16,424 nucleotides of DNA from an uncultured Deferribacteres bacterium (GTDB lineage Bacteria > Zhuqueibacterota > Zhuqueibacteria > Zhuqueibacterales > Geothermadaptataceae). Location: NCBI GenBank assembly GCA_964014485.1, contig CAXHAT010000176.1, positions 1 through 16,424 on the forward strand, written 5' to 3'. A model generated the notes under the pieces. The model was not told the DNA's origin and did not search any database. It saw only the letters and a program-made list of their open reading frames with translations. This document shows, in pieces, positions 10,222 to 16,185 of the stretch. Made by a program: the position numbers and the translations under genes. Positions within the stretch are counted from its first letter, which is position 1. Each line of letters starts with the position of its first letter.

Positions 10222-11019
10222 ATGCAAAACACTGGATCATGTCGAGACAGAATTTTTCGAACATCTTCGCCATTGATAAAAACAATGTTGGCAGGCTTGC
10301 TGACTCTTTTGACGCTTTCTTCAGAAATCCTTTTCGCGCAGCAAACATCAAAAACCGTTAAATTACCGACGGCGGTCACGCTTTACGAACTGCCTTCAAC
10401 CAAAAGCAGGCAAGTCGCCATGCTGCCGGCGGGAACGCACATTCGCATGATTCGCAAACGCAACGCATGGTTTCAGGTGGGCTTTGGCCGCAGACAAACC
10501 GGCTGGATGTTCTTGGGCGCGCGAAACGGCGCTGCGGCAAAAAATGCGGATCGGACGCCAAAACCCATTCGACAAACCTCACTTAACGCCGATGCACCGT
10601 TCCCTTCAAAAGGGGGGCTTTCTCTGTCGCTTGGATTTATGGGCGGCGATTTTTCTTACATCGGCAAGTTCCACTATTATAACATGCCAAACGGCGCTCT
10701 GGAAGGTTCTTTTCAATTCGTTGCCGGAAATACTTTAGCGCTTTATCCGATGGACATGAACTTCAAATTCTTCTGGCGCCGAATTAACACGTTCCGCAGT
10801 TACGTCAGCGCCGGATTTGGAATTATCACCAGCGTGCCGGTAAAATCAGCCGACGCCAAGTCAAGCTCGAATCTGTCATTCAATTACGGTTTGGGATTAC
10901 AAAAGCCGTTACAATCACGAACTTTTGTCAGAATTGATCTCCGCCAGTTTCTTGTTTTTGGCGATCAAAGCATTTTGAATTTTTTAGAACTCTCCGCCGG
11001 TTTGGGGATTTCGCTCTGA
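10222..11019 (+). CDS. SH3 domain-containing outer-membrane beta-barrel protein
   Basis: Bacterial SH3-like segment (LYELPSTKS...LPAGT...WFQV...TGW), a linker, then a barrel ending ELSAGLGISL. The true start may be downstream (about 10273-10285). Confidence 0.75.
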   Translation: MQNTGSCRDRIFRTSSPLIKTMLAGLLTLLTLSSEILFAQQTSKTVKLPTAVTLYELPSTKSRQVAMLPAGTHIRMIRKRNAWFQVGFGRRQTGWMFLGARNGAAAKNADRTPKPIRQTSLNADAPFPSKGGLSLSLGFMGGDFSYIGKFHYYNMPNGALEGSFQFVAGNTLALYPMDMNFKFFWRRINTFRSYVSAGFGIITSVPVKSADAKSSSNLSFNYGLGLQKPLQSRTFVRIDLRQFLVFGDQSILNFLELSAGLGISL

Positions 11020-11042
11020 GCTCATCAACCAGGAAAACACAC

Positions 11043-11588
11043 ATGCGAAAATGGACTTCCGCCTTATTCATTATTCTCATTTTTACAACTTTGGCCGAAG
11101 CGCAGCAGCCCAAACGGAAAGCCCCGCGTCTCCACGAAATCGCGCCGTTTCTCGGCTTTTATGCTCCGGATCGTTTCGAAACGTCGTTCACTTACGGGGC
11201 GCGCTACTATTACCGAATGAGCAGAAAAAACAGCGCGGGCGCGGTCATTGGCTTCGCAAAAGCGGGGCAGGATTTCTTTAGAAAATCCATCAACTTAGCG
11301 CCGGTTGCAGGGTCGGATCGCGTTATTTTTCATGCCGTTCGCTTTATGCGCACAATGATCGTTCGCAGCCGCATTCAGCCGTACATCACAACGCAGCTCG
11401 GCTTGACGAAGATGCACGACGAATACAATATGACGCTGGGTCTTGGGCTGGGAACGCGCGTGATCACCAAGAAGAAAACCACGTGGCGCTACGAGATTAT
11501 CTCGCACTTCTTTCGCAGCGGCGCGGACGTGACTTCCTGGACGAACAAGACCATTGAACTTGCGTTTGCGCTGGGCTTTTATTTGTGA
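11043..11588 (+). CDS. Outer-membrane beta-barrel domain protein
   Basis: AGGA RBS and signal peptide ending AEA. Segments EIAPFLG, YGARYYY, QPYITTQLG, LGLGLGTR and C-terminal IELAFALGFYL. Confidence 0.8.
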   Translation: MRKWTSALFIILIFTTLAEAQQPKRKAPRLHEIAPFLGFYAPDRFETSFTYGARYYYRMSRKNSAGAVIGFAKAGQDFFRKSINLAPVAGSDRVIFHAVRFMRTMIVRSRIQPYITTQLGLTKMHDEYNMTLGLGLGTRVITKKKTTWRYEIISHFFRSGADVTSWTNKTIELAFALGFYL

Positions 11589-11621
11589 GAATCGATGCTC
11601 ATTGAAAGCGATGAGCAATTC

Positions 11622-11637
11622 TGGCACAATGGTTGTA
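11622..11637 (+). promoter_or_regulatory. Putative sigma54 -24/-12 promoter for the downstream sRNA
   Basis: TGGCACAATGGTTGTA has an exact TGGCAC -24 box and GG-N10-GT spacing. The -12 box is TTGTA rather than TTGCA. Predicted +1 is about 11648. Confidence 0.6.
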
Positions 11638-12136
11638 TTAGTCTGGGCAGTTAGCGATTGACGACAGGACGTCGAGAATACGCTTGCGGGTTTTCAAGGA
11701 ATGAAAGCTCAACGGCTCGCTAAAAAACACTCTGACAGGACGTTGGAGAAAAATGAAACGACAAAATTGTAATTACAGAATTGTCGTTCAAAACAAAAAG
11801 CTTCCTGCAAGATGCGGGAGGCCGAAGCAGTGACATAGCTGGTCTGACTGCATCTCGCTTCGGTCAAAAACCAGGGATGTTTGATCCAGGGAATTCGGTG
11901 CAAGGACGCGCCGGGACATGCTTAGGACAGAGCATTGAAGTCGATTGCTCTTCAAGGATGAAGAGAAAGCGGGTGGAACTCTTTTCATCCGTCGCCGCAG
12001 GGAATGGCGGCGTTTTTCGAAGCAACCGACTGGTTCACGGGATCAAGCAAGAGGTCATGCCAGGGACAAGCAAAAACTTGACTTCAGGGATAGAAATTGG
12101 CCGTATTCATCAATGAAAGGCCAGCTATGTTTTTTA

Positions 12137-12204
12137 AGTAATTAGTTATTGGTAAATAGTGATTAGAACTGCTCACCAATAACTAATTACTAAACACTAT
12201 TTAC
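12137..12204. repeat. AT-rich heptamer tandem/inverted repeat element
   Basis: TAATTAG-TTATTGG-TAAATAG-TGATTAG, a spacer, then CCAATAA-CTAATTA-CTAAACA-CTATTTA. Includes a perfect 17-bp inverted repeat at 12137-12153/12175-12191. Confidence 0.8.
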
Positions 12205-12266
12205 TTATCCGCAGGGACGCGGTGTTTCGCTTCAAATCTCAGGGTTGAGATCAGTGTTAGGACAAA

Positions 12267-12295
12267 GCGCGCCAGGGATTTGGCGCGCATTTTTT
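12267..12295 (+). terminator. Intrinsic terminator of the putative sRNA (loop carries AGGGA)
   Basis: GCGCGCC-AGGGATTT-GGCGCGC followed by ATTTTTT. Confidence 0.7.
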
Positions 12296-12501
12296 CGCCG
12301 TAGATAACACTAAGGCTCATCCGAAAATAACTTTTCGGAGTTCGCTCATGTTTGCGACGGATTTGTCCGAAAAAAATGAAGAATAGCGAGTTATTCAGAG
12401 CTTTTTTTCGGGCAAAGACGGCGTGAAGGTGAGATGAAATCCGGGAAGGTATTTTTGGATGAACCGTAAGGTCGAGGAAAGACCAAAGAGGAGAAGACTC
12501 A

Positions 12502-12801
12502 ATGAAAGACCGCGTCACCAGTCGCGTCGATGTTATTGGTTTGGAAAACAGCCGCTCTTTTTGCACTCCGCATATTTCGCTTTTGGGCAGGCAAATTCTG
12601 AAATCGTTTCGTTTCGTTTTTGTCACCAGCGACAATCCTCTCTGTTACTTCAGGGATCATCAAACCATCATTATCAACCTTCCGTCACGACCAGAAAAAC
12701 CAAGTTCGTACCAAGCGTTAATCCCGAAAAATCAGCCGATCGTCATTGATGGGAAGCCAGAAGTTCCTTTCAGATTTGGCGATTGCTATCGTATCGAATA
12801 A
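12502..12801 (+). CDS. Hypothetical protein (99 aa)
   Basis: ATG with GAGGAG 8 nt upstream. No recognisable domain. Confidence 0.4.
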   Translation: MKDRVTSRVDVIGLENSRSFCTPHISLLGRQILKSFRFVFVTSDNPLCYFRDHQTIIINLPSRPEKPSSYQALIPKNQPIVIDGKPEVPFRFGDCYRIE

Positions 12802-13039
12802 ACAAACCTTGTCGCAACTGAATGATCAACCGTTTTGGGTTTGCGATATTTTATTTTGACGAACGATATGCTCTGGGAATAGACTGAAGTTTGAACTACG
12901 AGCGACAGCCGTTCTGCTTAAGGCTGAGCTGAAGGCATGCATCGTCGTTTGCAGTTCAAGCTTTAGCTTGCGAATAAAGGGCGTTTTCGGTCAATCGATC
13001 TGATTTATGCACCAAGGACAGGACATCTGGAAAACAGGC

Positions 13040-14188
13040 ATGTTAGCCCAGTTTACAAGCGTGATGAAGCGCGCTCTTTTGACTGCCGTCGTCTCGATTT
13101 TCGGCATAATGCAAAACAGTTTCGCCGAAGATAAATTTGGCCTTACGACGACGATTTTCAATGACAACAGCGGACTCGCCGTGCAAGCCCCGATGTTTCA
13201 GCTTGCGAAAGATTTGAGCGAAGTGAGCATCTTCTCCATGCACTTGCTCATTGACCGCGTCAACATCCCGCCTTTTCGCGGCATTTCCGGCGCGCCGGTT
13301 CCCACGGACGCCGTCACAGGCGCTTCCCGTCCTGCAACCGCCGATTCCGGCGACGGCTCTTTCATCAAAAGACGCAGTGAAGTTTTGGCGACCTGGACGT
13401 ATCGCAGGGCGGATTTTTCCGGCTACTACTCAGCGGAGAGCGATTATATCGGCAGGCTCGTTTCCGTCGGGATAAATAAAGATTATCTGCAAAAAAACAC
13501 CAATTTTGCCGTGCGGCTGGCCTACGGCTCCGATACGGTCAAGCCGACAGGCCGCGATTCAACGCTTTCCAAAACTTCGCTTTTGGGCAACGCCACGCTC
13601 ACCCAAACCTTGTCGAAAAAAACGATCATGCGTTTGGGGCTGGACATGTCGTACTCGGACGGTTTTCAATCCAATCCGTATCGCCTCGTTTCAGTCGGCG
13701 GCGGCAATTTCCCGGAGACGCATCCGCAAACGCGCATTCGCGTCGCGGGCTTTGCCAAGCTTAACACCTACATTAAATCGATGGACGCGGCGCTGTGGTT
13801 TGACTATCGCTTGTACGGCGATGATTGGGGCGTGCGCTCTCATGCGCTGGGCGTGAAGTTTTACCAAAACATGTCGAAGCGCTTGTTGATGCGTTACCGC
13901 TACCGTTTCTACACGCAGAGTCAGGCGTATTTTTACCAGGACGTCTATTCGATTACGCAAACGCCGACGTTTTTCACCGGCGACTACAAATTGATGCATT
14001 TTCATTCACATATTTTCGGCGTGAAAGCCGTCTATCATGCGCCGTTTTTGGAGCGTTGGCTCCGTTTCGCGACTGATCCTGAGCTGAGCGTGAAGTACGA
14101 GAGATTTTTCACTTCAGAAAATTTCGCCTTTACTACAGCCAATTTCGGCGCGAATATTTTACAAATCGGCGTTTCGTTTGGATACTAA
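13040..14188 (+). CDS. DUF3570-family outer-membrane beta-barrel protein with putative flavinylation motif
   Basis: Family-like motifs DAVTGAS, SAESDY, GFQSNPYR, DYRLYGDDWG, RYRFYTQSQAYFY, GDYKL. Signal peptide MKRALL...SFA and C-terminal Tyr. Start uncertain (13007, 13040 or 13064). Confidence 0.85.
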   Translation: MLAQFTSVMKRALLTAVVSIFGIMQNSFAEDKFGLTTTIFNDNSGLAVQAPMFQLAKDLSEVSIFSMHLLIDRVNIPPFRGISGAPVPTDAVTGASRPATADSGDGSFIKRRSEVLATWTYRRADFSGYYSAESDYIGRLVSVGINKDYLQKNTNFAVRLAYGSDTVKPTGRDSTLSKTSLLGNATLTQTLSKKTIMRLGLDMSYSDGFQSNPYRLVSVGGGNFPETHPQTRIRVAGFAKLNTYIKSMDAALWFDYRLYGDDWGVRSHALGVKFYQNMSKRLLMRYRYRFYTQSQAYFYQDVYSITQTPTFFTGDYKLMHFHSHIFGVKAVYHAPFLERWLRFATDPELSVKYERFFTSENFAFTTANFGANILQIGVSFGY

Positions 14189-14223: not shown

Positions 14224-16185
14224 ATGCAACCAGAAAAAGCTGCCACGGAAGGGTGGATAAATGGAGTGCTGGATTTTTGGAAGAGAGCGGCATGGAAGGC
14301 CAAAAATCCAATAATCCAACATTCCAATAATTCAACTATTAGAAACACTAGCGTTGCAACCGTCAGCAAGGTGTTTCTGAAAACCTTGCTCGGCATGACA
14401 ATTCTCGCCGGGTGTCAAAGCGCGCCGGAGGATTTGGCGCAAACCGACTCCATCATTTTTGTCAAATCGACTTCAAATCGCTTTTTGAACACCAACTTCA
14501 TCTCAAACCAGACGACGAGCAACCTTTTTATGCTGTCGCCGATTTCGCCGAACGGAACGCTGACCAATCTCACCAATCTCACTGGCGAAGGCGCCGCCGT
14601 GGCTGATCCGGACATTTCCTACGACGGCTTGCGGGTGATTTTTTCCATGAGAACAGATCGTAACGGCAACTGGCATCTCTACGAAATGAATGTCGACGGC
14701 TCCGGCATTCGTCAGCTTACCTCCGGCGATTCCGACAACTGTGATCCGACGTACTTGCCTGACGGACGCATTATGTTCAGCTCAAATCGCACGTTTTATC
14801 GCGACGAATATGAGCGACGGCCTGTTGAAGTGCTTCACATCATGACTGCGGACGGGAGCAGCATTGAGCGCGTCTCTTTTAACATGAGCGACGATTTCGA
14901 TCCAATTGTTTTGCGCGACGGACGCATTGCCTGGACGCGCTGGGAGCATCACGGGACGCAAAACCGTTTCCCGCTCTTTTTCACACATCCGGACGGCTCG
15001 TCGACCTTTCTGCACTTCGGCTCGCATAATCGCAATTTTTGGCACGCCCGCGAACTGGAGGACGGGCGGCTGGTTGCGATTATGTCGAACCGGGTGCAGG
15101 TGGATCGCGGTGCGCTGGTGATTATCGACGCTGAAAATCAGTCCGGAGATCGCGGCGAAGGAATCACCAATTTGACCGAGCATATTTCCATCAGCGGCGA
15201 CACGACGAGCTTCAAATATCCGTTTCCGCTGCCTGACGGACGTTTGGTCGTGAGCTACGCGCCGGAAGGCCACGAAGCGGGCGATTACGGCTTGTACCTG
15301 ATTAATCGCGACGGTTCGAGCCTGAGCTTGCTATACAACGACCCTGAAACAAATGAATTGGACGCCGTTGTGGTTTCACCGCGCCCACGCCCGCCGGTAA
15401 TACCCGATATTCTCAACAAGGCTGCAACGACCAGCGTGGTGTTGAACCAGAACGTTTACAACCGTCAGCGCAACGACGGCCAGCAGATTCCCGAGCCGGA
15501 CGAGGTCAAATCTGTGATGGTCGTTGAAGCAATTCCGCAGCAATCCAGGAATCGCAACGGCATGACGAGTTTTGAAAGCAAGCGCGTGATCGGCACAGCG
15601 CCGATTCTGCCGGACGGTTCTTTTGCCATCGAAATTCCTTCGAATACGCCGGTCGCGTTTAATCTGCTTGATTCTTTGGGCCGCGCGATTGTGATCAAAC
15701 GCAGTTGGTTCTACGCCCGCCCCGGCGAACGTTTCGAAAATTGCACCGGGTGTCACGGCGACCGCGAAGGGCCTTCCACGAACCCCAATCCAATGGCGCT
15801 CACCGCGCAGCCGACGAACTTGAACGTGCCGGAAGCGGAGCGCGAAGTCATCGCTTTTTCAAACGCCATCGCGCCGATTATCGAAAATAAATGCGTCTCG
15901 TGTCACGTTGGCGCGACACCGCCCGGCAATCTCGATCTGTCTTTGACCGCGCCAGCGGAAGAATTTCCGATTGCTTATCAAAATCTCATGGATCGCGGAC
16001 GTGATCCGCACTTGGTCGAAGTTTCGCGCGTGCCTTTTTCGCGCCGCAGTCATCTCGTCGATGTTTTGCTTGGCCTTGACGACCGCGCCGGAGTCGGCCC
16101 GCATTTGACCGGAGAGAACGCTTTAACCGCTGATGAAATTCGTAAAATTATTACCTGGATCGATCTGGGCGGGCAATATGAATAA
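14224..16185 (+). CDS. HzsA (hydrazine synthase alpha)-related lipoprotein: TolB/PD40-type beta-propeller, middle domain and two c-type heme motifs
   Basis: AGGAGG RBS and lipobox LAG-C64. Repeats DPDISYDG, DPTYLPDGRIMFSS, PFPLPDGR. Middle domain IGTAPILPDGSFAIEIP...PGE. CTGCH at aa 507-511 and CVSCH at aa 557-561. Confidence 0.85.
   Translation: MQPEKAATEGWINGVLDFWKRAAWKAKNPIIQHSNNSTIRNTSVATVSKVFLKTLLGMTILAGCQSAPEDLAQTDSIIFVKSTSNRFLNTNFISNQTTSNLFMLSPISPNGTLTNLTNLTGEGAAVADPDISYDGLRVIFSMRTDRNGNWHLYEMNVDGSGIRQLTSGDSDNCDPTYLPDGRIMFSSNRTFYRDEYERRPVEVLHIMTADGSSIERVSFNMSDDFDPIVLRDGRIAWTRWEHHGTQNRFPLFFTHPDGSSTFLHFGSHNRNFWHARELEDGRLVAIMSNRVQVDRGALVIIDAENQSGDRGEGITNLTEHISISGDTTSFKYPFPLPDGRLVVSYAPEGHEAGDYGLYLINRDGSSLSLLYNDPETNELDAVVVSPRPRPPVIPDILNKAATTSVVLNQNVYNRQRNDGQQIPEPDEVKSVMVVEAIPQQSRNRNGMTSFESKRVIGTAPILPDGSFAIEIPSNTPVAFNLLDSLGRAIVIKRSWFYARPGERFENCTGCHGDREGPSTNPNPMALTAQPTNLNVPEAEREVIAFSNAIAPIIENKCVSCHVGATPPGNLDLSLTAPAEEFPIAYQNLMDRGRDPHLVEVSRVPFSRRSHLVDVLLGLDDRAGVGPHLTGENALTADEIRKIITWIDLGGQYE
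14246..14334. repeat. Octamer tandem/inverted repeat element inside a CDS
   Basis: CGGAAGGG-TGGATAAA-TGGAGTGC-TGGATTTT-TGG ... CCA-AAAATCCA-ATAATCCA-ACATTCCA-ATAATTCA. Confidence 0.75.

Follow-up and report, generated by a model that had tools for sequence, protein, structure and literature searches.

RNAs that act as decoys for CsrA are described as a gammaproteobacterial feature, with the protein FliW as the antagonist of CsrA elsewhere (PMC7652899, PMC4894983). According to PMC7652899, Gammaproteobacteria lack fliW, whose occurrence is anti-correlated with that of BarA-UvrY. The relevant passages of Dugar et al. (2016, PMC4894983) report an anti-correlation of FliW with CsrB/C and give a cooperation of FliW with RNA-mediated control as unknown. 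The CsrB and CsrC RNAs of Escherichia coli, as well as RsmB of Erwinia, are long non-coding RNAs with many hairpin loops of the CA(R)GGA type and internally repeated units; they end with a GGA-loop hairpin followed by a T-run, and are presumed to titrate CsrA dimers (PMC7652899). In the RsmX, RsmY and RsmZ RNAs of Pseudomonas and Legionella, A(N)GGA motifs occupy hairpin loops as well as single-stranded linkers. RsmB of Erwinia has a length of 479 nucleotides (nt). For a FliW user, CsrA titration was described with the flaA mRNA leader of Campylobacter jejuni, which belongs to a coding mRNA, has two sites and is tied to flagellin (PMC4894983). Here, we consider the interval 11622-12295 of a 16,424-nt stretch of DNA (the window; contig CAXHAT010000176.1 of assembly GCA_964014485.1), which an initial annotation had described as a CsrA-titrating RNA of about 650 nt resembling the CsrB/Rsm RNAs. 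On balance, it appears probable that the + strand of ~11640-12135 encodes a CsrA-titrating RNA of ~490 nt that is specific to its lineage and evolved independently.

The interval is located in a gap of ~900 nt between a gene for a protein of 181 amino acids (aa; 11043-11588) and weak open reading frames (ORFs). On the + strand, it contains 19 GGA against four TCC, an exact count that agrees with the one made by hand in the initial annotation; the 16 GGA positions given there each fall 0-3 nt ahead of a GGA, and the nine hairpins written out are all present in the sequence as described. AGGA and AGGGA are found seven times each, and their reverse complements TCCT and TCCCT once and not at all, respectively. 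CA(A/G)GGA occurs ten times, where 0.26 occurrences are expected from the genome-wide rate (Poisson 3e-13), so that the interval ranks at the top of the 8.4-Mb genome; the runner-up of the same length (674 nt, both strands considered) has six. Besides the ten CARGGA, the loop motifs comprise two ACAGGA and two UUAGGA, and several of them lie within six-base loops. When only A(N)GGA within a loop of 4-9 nt closed by a stem of at least four pairs is counted, eight such loops are found in 700 nt of the + strand at the locus, but not one on the minus strand, which bears out the strand specificity initially suspected. This is the maximum of the genome (rate 0.56; next best count six, reached at six loci). 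With a looser count, accepting any GGA in a hairpin, several other loci of the genome rank above the interval; these are tandem repeats or parts of coding sequence, where the GGA occurs as CGGA or TGGA. Two other matches to a CARGGA triplet in the same genome are inside ORFs. The GGA hairpins of the locus do not recur elsewhere in the genome and are not a dispersed repeat. The locus stands out by the context of its motifs, by their placement in loops and by their bias to one strand, rather than by the number of GGA.

The + strand of 11640-12300 folds with a z-score of -11.3, and the minus strand with one of -9.3. In the minimum free energy (MFE) structure of 11640-12130, 8 of the 16 GGA are placed in hairpin loops, as compared with an average of 1.57, and never more than five, in 100 dinucleotide shuffles; the comparison with shuffled controls proposed in the initial annotation thus speaks for its loops. 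In the same fold, the unpaired probability exceeds 0.5 for 11 of the 16 GGA. Two features of the original description are, however, not supported. The interval is composite, being made of a core of ~490 nt, a multi-copy AT-rich palindrome and an 88-nt terminator module, so that the uniform array of about 650 nt is split by the repeat at 12134-12207. Nor is a single transcript of that length supported, since the RNA cover described below ends at ~12122 and the repeat element interrupts the interval. The candidate decoy RNA corresponds to the core alone (~11640-12135, + strand, both ends approximate), where 11-12 of the 16 GGA are accessible within CA(R)GGA, ACAGGA or UUAGGA.

These motifs can be compared with the known preferences of CsrA. 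The consensus obtained by SELEX is RUACARGGAUGU, most ligands having the GGA in a six-base hairpin loop, the CsrB repeat is CAGGA(U/A/C)G, and two sites bridged by one CsrA dimer are 10-63 nt apart, according to the account given in PMC7652899. The motifs of the locus agree with both consensus sequences and, by subtraction of the folded positions, 9 of the 10 gaps between accessible sites measure 14-63 nt, inside this bridging range. It can thus be proposed that the core hairpins would display CA(A/G)GGA, ACAGGA or UUAGGA loops to CsrA dimers, several of which would be bound to a single RNA and so withdrawn from their mRNA targets. How much CsrA is left free would then be determined by the level of the decoy RNA.

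RNA is found over the core and not over its neighbors. Four RNA-Seq runs of one seawater metatranscriptome study contain 12-15% of the words of 11000-13000. Over 10500-13500, only 11608-12122 is covered by assembled RNA contigs, in all four runs. The five contigs (151-457 nt; 11608-11758, 11738-12122, 11668-12060, 11662-12064 and 11662-12117) are 95-97% identical to the window sequence. Not a single bin of 10500-11509 or of 12217-13500 has any depth, so that ~1 kb of flanking genes is bare on each side. RNA-Seq, one of the checks proposed in the initial annotation, thus gives contigs on the core and none on the flanking genes, these contigs carrying no strand information.

The host is a metagenome-assembled genome (MAG) that is 97% complete. 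Relatives of one of its proteins are labeled candidate division KSB1, 'bacterium', Cytophagia or Calditrichaceae, and none Gammaproteobacteria, as had been supposed from the window alone. A single csrA gene (G000:C16 49553-49708) was found in this genome, with a PF02599 match of 85.7 bits. It directly follows fliW (G000:C16 49745-50104, same strand) in an operon. The search for csrA and fliW suggested in the initial annotation thus returned both genes side by side, and the alternative of a small RNA (sRNA) used instead of FliW is not supported in view of the adjacent fliW. The host CsrA, of 88 aa, can be aligned end to end with its E. coli counterpart (1Y00), over residues 1-56. L4 and R44, which are named as critical in PMC7652899, are conserved. 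Hence, two hallmarks of CsrA-sequestering sRNAs are present, namely GGA motifs in loops or single strands on one strand only and a cognate CsrA with intact RNA-binding residues. The neighbors of the fliW-csrA operon (G000:C16:49553-50104; L001, L002) are not flagellar genes: they encode a 74-aa membrane protein and a protein resembling, as judged by eye, inositol monophosphatase.

Flagellin and flagellar genes are missing from the host genome, in which no match to Flagellin_N, Flagellin_C, FHIPEP (FlhA) or Flg_bb_rod was obtained with profiles that each matched in four known flagellates. FlhA is present in 8 of 8 genomes from three genera of the family to which the window belongs, and is absent from the window's genome, from G001 and from all 19 sister-family genomes. 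Within the sister family, none of 9 sampled genomes has flagellin, while FliW was found in all 9 and CsrA in 14 of 14, these counts including two unpublished genomes (G016 and G023). Judged from these gene counts, the absence of flagellar genes is not an accident of assembly, and a predicted loss of the flagellum with fliW-csrA kept is common to the whole sister family. In a KSB1 survey, flagellar genes are reported for only two of four clades (PMC9012183). The situation is the opposite of that described for Campylobacter, where non-flagellated species are without csrA and fliW (PMC4894983). With respect to the flagellin-FliW-CsrA partner switch, fliW does lie beside csrA, but flagellin and its export apparatus were not found. 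As the host has no flagellum, flagellin, the usual input of FliW, is missing, and an RNA antagonist would supply a regulatory input. In flagellated relatives, seven flagellin leaders were taken, four of them with a clear start. For two of these four, a GGA lies upstream within an A-context (ACAAGGAT in L097, AAAGGAC in L099). In L098, nothing but the Shine-Dalgarno GGAGGA is present, and the contexts of GGA in L095 are different ones.

Altogether, the best-supported view is that the RNA of this locus would act like CsrB while standing outside any known family, and in a new setting, with FliW present and the flagellum absent. It shares with CsrB/CsrC and RsmB the length of a long non-coding RNA, the many CA(R)GGA-type loops, the internally repeated units, a GGA-loop hairpin with a T-run at the 3' end and, presumably, the titration of CsrA dimers. 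It differs from them by the lack of sequence or structure homology, by a long-range closing helix, and by a host labeled KSB1 (Fibrobacteres-Chlorobi-Bacteroidetes, FCB, group) that carries fliW. With RsmX/RsmY/RsmZ, it shares A(N)GGA motifs in hairpin loops and single-stranded linkers; the 88-nt 3' module, with three sites and a terminator, has the size of an Rsm RNA, but the core is four times longer and the locus matches no Rfam model. As compared with the flaA leader, which likewise titrates CsrA in a FliW user, the locus is a candidate for a dedicated non-coding RNA; its sites number about a dozen, and its genome lacks flagellin. The literature searched yielded no report that KSB1 or a FliW-bearing non-flagellate has a decoy RNA of the Csr type.

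Within the core, the following elements were read from sequence and fold, all on the + strand. The 5' part contains three hairpins, ttgacg-ACAGGA-cgtcga (11658-11675; unpaired probability of the GGA, 1.0), gggttttc-AAGGAAT-gaaagctc (11688-11710) and ctctgac-AGGAC-gttggag (11730-11748). They are followed by a palindrome with a perfect core and without GGA, recovered by inverted-repeat search and fold (11757-11788, including TGTAATTACA). The densest block (11868-11935) is formed of four adjacent sites spaced by 14-21 nt, with the units aaac-CAGGGAT-gttt, CCAGGGAAT, ggtgc-AAGGAC-gcgcc and atgctt-AGGACA-gagcat. Downstream come ctcttc-AAGGAT-gaagag (11948-11965) and cgtcgcc-GCAGGGAAT-ggcggcg (11990-12017), which has a GGA in its loop and, being followed by TTTTT, resembles an internal terminator; two RNA contigs nevertheless traverse it and reach 12117 and 12122. 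Two CAGGGA sites, at 12061 and 12085 (12061-12090), are predicted to remain mostly without a pairing partner (probability of being unpaired, 0.51 and 0.53). The domain with most of the GGA hairpins is enclosed by a long-range helix of the MFE structure, between a 5' arm at 11833-11845 and a 3' arm at 12118-12130 (13 nt, 92% complementary). The 3' arm runs into TTTTTT (12130-12135). Two RNA contigs stop at 12117 and 12122, and 12118-12135 is likely the 3' end of the core RNA.

Beyond this end, the AT-rich palindrome at 12134-12207, with arms of TTAGTGA-type heptamers and no assigned strand, parts the core from the 3' module. Nine further copies (E<=0.01), alignable over ~75 nt, are distributed on eight contigs (C332, C297, C3 with two, C154, C91, C165, C275 and C57). 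As a short palindrome with many copies at unrelated loci, it resembles repetitive extragenic palindromic (REP) sequences or miniature inverted-repeat transposable elements (MITEs). The copies often have a T-run ahead of them. Weak matches of 12134-12207 to plant microRNA (miRNA) models in Rfam are spurious. The 88-nt module (12208-12295, + strand) has three GGA sites, in ccgc-AGGGAC-gcgg, in UUAGGACAA and in the terminator. The latter, gcgcgcc-AGGGATTT-ggcgcgc followed by A and TTTTTT (12267-12295), has a nine-pair stem with seven GC pairs and a GGA in its loop. Three units of the module duplicate units of the core (GCARGGACGCG, TTAGGACARAGC and CCAGGGAWTT), and no RNA contig covers it. With its three additional sites and strong terminator, the module may represent another small decoy RNA; otherwise, it would be what was originally the 3' end of the core, severed by the inserted repeat. 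Outside the RNA, a second palindromic repeat of ~160 nt (12306-12465, no assigned strand) is shared with C32:18917-19077 (82% over 150 nt, in both orientations) and is thus present at two loci.

Several points weigh against a decoy RNA at this locus. The raw number of GGA is explained by the local composition: shuffles keep 13.3 GGA on average, with a maximum of 18, so that the count follows from the dinucleotide content of the region. CsrB is denser in sites than the locus, which has ~1 per 30-40 nt. No Rfam family is matched in the window at gathering score, and in 11400-12600 the Csr/Rsm models considered (CsrB, CsrC, RsmX, RsmY, PrrB_RsmZ and relatives) give no match even at E<=10, the only matches there being the spurious ones to miRNA models on the AT-rich palindrome and one to isrJ (E = 9.6); the likeness to CsrB/Rsm claimed in the initial annotation is therefore not one of homology. 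No GacA/UvrY box was found near the locus with the consensus TGTAAG-N6-CTTACA, the window containing two matches with up to three mismatches (8065 and 9897) where 3.2 are expected. As for the RNA evidence, it consists of assembled contigs from one study, without strand information, and the contig ends are perhaps assembly breaks at repeat or variable sites rather than RNA ends. Finally, a selfish-looking GGA-loop hairpin repeat, described below, exists in a relative genus, hence such hairpins can spread without a decoy gene.

The conservation of the gene and of its GGA loops in related species, another hallmark of CsrA-sequestering sRNAs, was not found, and this too counts against the proposal. 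BLAST did not recover a counterpart of the locus in 40 relatives, which include no other genome of the window's genus. A covariance model of the densest part (11862-12018), run on 29 order genomes including that of the window, gave no counterpart in the 28 others, but only weak matches in coding sequence (best foreign match, E = 0.028). A motif-pattern scan of 151 phylum genomes (CARGGA three times, gaps of 5-25) gave at least one match in 90 of them; examination of 30 listed loci, plus a rescan of 15 order genomes, revealed no analogue among the matches listed, where each candidate fell within coding sequence, a simple tandem repeat or a hairpin repeat of the dispersed kind. On present sequences, the conservation behind the presumed function reaches only one strain, that of the RNA contigs, 95-97% identical. 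This strain keeps all 16 GGA sites and differs from the window by 14 substitutions and one 1-nt deletion. None of the substitutions is within a GGA, which is not significant (chance ~0.2, GGA making up ~10% of the covered bases). The deletion, at 12063, changes AGGGA into AGGA at the first of the two CAGGGA sites. At predicted pairs, four of five substitutions preserve pairing and one terminal pair is lost, numbers that are too small to be informative. In the palindrome 11757-11788, both bases of the outermost pair are altered to a non-pair.

A first alternative is that the locus produces a real, abundant and structured non-coding RNA with another job, for example in scaffolding, in titrating a different RNA-binding protein or in regulation by base pairing, its GGA loops not being meant for CsrA. 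The strong fold, the presence in RNA libraries and the lack of homology to Csr/Rsm families would all be accounted for. So would the stretch 11750-11865, where 110 nt without accessible GGA hold a separate palindrome, and the long-range closing helix, which is unlike the open hairpin strings of CsrB. However, the loops fit the CsrA consensus in detail, with their ten CARGGA, and not by GGA alone. To our knowledge, CsrA is the only protein that reads the CARGGA loop motif, and it is present and intact in the host. An RNA with another job thus appears rather unlikely.

It can also be imagined that the locus is a functionless pile-up of locally duplicated hairpin units and inserted repeats in a gene-poor spacer that is transcribed. 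This would be in line with the two repeat elements in or beside the locus, with the internal duplications of units, with the absence of conservation outside the species, and with the dispersed GGA-loop hairpin repeats and CAAGGA tandem repeats of relatives. On the other hand, each GGA hairpin has a different stem, none recurs in the genome and all are on one strand, while the RNA is far more abundant than its neighbors in all four runs. Moreover, internal duplication is also the way in which CsrB-type RNAs are built up. A mere pile-up is accordingly regarded as improbable.

The repeats of relatives deserve a description of their own. A dispersed hairpin repeat of ~25 nt, GCAAGC-A(A/G)GGAT-GCTTGC, has a six-base loop that fits the CsrA consensus; BLAST matches to it number 49 in G005 and 14 in G002, both from a flagellated genus of the same family. 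Tandem triplets of this repeat occur at two intergenic loci, G005:C389:7396-7451 (L106 ~1490-1570) and G005:C164:8417-8472 (L101). It looks like a REP-like element bearing a predicted CsrA site. Intergenic tandem repeats with periods of 7, 8 and 11 nt, several of them based on CAAGGA, were also seen (G015:C27:50910-51160; G020:C98:6387-6464 and the ends of C241 and C301; G009:C72:877-970); the periods argue for a non-coding nature. One case is (GCAAGGR)n of ~250 nt right after a stop codon, followed by a second repeat with a period of 8 nt (CATCAAGC-type units). In the host genome itself, the last 70 nt of C255, at a contig end, consist of (GGAGTCAT)n. In the metagenome contig L025, ~11 copies of TGCAACAAGGAA-type units (2799-2930) are located upstream of a homologue of the 181-aa gene. 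An apparent array of 12 sites in L025 proved to be a 12-nt tandem repeat within a 415-aa ORF, and is therefore coding.

A third alternative considers the RNA as an untranslated part of an mRNA, either the processed 3' untranslated region of the 181-aa gene or a leader through which CsrA would control the genes downstream (12502 onward). Its appeal comes from the upstream end of the locus, where no convincing promoter was found and where one RNA contig begins at 11608, just 20 nt past the upstream stop codon. A weak sigma-70-like match on the + strand (11602-11630; TTGAAA, 17-nt spacer, CACAAT, with TG ahead of the second hexamer) includes this position, so that the true start may be further upstream. 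Promoter-like sites occur in the region at chance frequency (two observed, 2.0 expected). A sigma-54-like TGGCAC-N5-TTGT on the + strand (11622-11636) was discarded as a chance match, there being 12 such matches in the genome and TGGCAC-N5-TTGC being no commoner than with other spacings; rpoN is present in the genome. An inverted repeat, TGCTCAT-N8-ATGAGCA (11596-11617), read from the sequence 8 nt past the stop codon of the 181-aa gene and assigned to neither strand, is not followed by a T-run. An operator role is conceivable for it, as is one in ending the upstream transcript. Hairpin-plus-T-run terminators are, for their part, present on the + strand of the locus. Against an mRNA origin, neither neighbor has RNA cover in the four runs, and the strong terminator at 12267-12295 and two repeats separate the RNA from the downstream genes. 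In addition, homologues of the 181-aa gene were found in 14 order genomes, 12 metagenome contigs and eight species genomes, and at least 20 other loci have no GGA-hairpin array downstream of the homologue; the contig of the closest relative stops 56 nt past it. A untranslated mRNA part is thus very improbable. Lastly, a small protein gene is hardly credible: ORFs of 64-111 aa do exist in the region, but the longest (111 aa, 11781-12116) starts with TTG, the two ORFs examined have no Pfam match, and the deletion of the related strain would frameshift two spanning + strand ORFs, the longest included, so that the coding signature named in the initial annotation as a possible objection did not appear.

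The genes around the locus can be described briefly. The upstream 181-aa gene (11043-11588) belongs to no known family. Downstream, the weak ORFs precede a DUF3570 gene (13007-14188), which adjoins another gene (14224-16185); the product of the latter, of 653 aa, carries a PD40 propeller repeat and a cytochrome c motif besides a hydrazine-synthase-alpha middle domain (PF18582).

If the candidate decoy RNA is retained, its occurrence in a FliW bearer is of interest in its own right. An RNA with multiple GGA hairpins in such a host would make the cooperation of FliW with RNA-mediated control testable, and would show that CsrB-like decoys arose repeatedly. Furthermore, since the fliW-csrA pair is always kept in a clade without flagellar genes, it would have a function beyond flagellin homeostasis. 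This raises the tentative possibility that, after flagellar loss, the KSB1 lineage kept FliW-CsrA and rewired it, a multi-site decoy RNA having replaced flagellin and its mRNA in setting the level of free CsrA. If so, CsrA would be under the joint control of a protein antagonist and an RNA antagonist, and the locus would represent an independently evolved CsrB analogue outside Proteobacteria. It would then be an exception to the reported anti-correlation between FliW and Csr sRNAs, and would also speak against the notion that FliW-CsrA serves flagellum assembly only.

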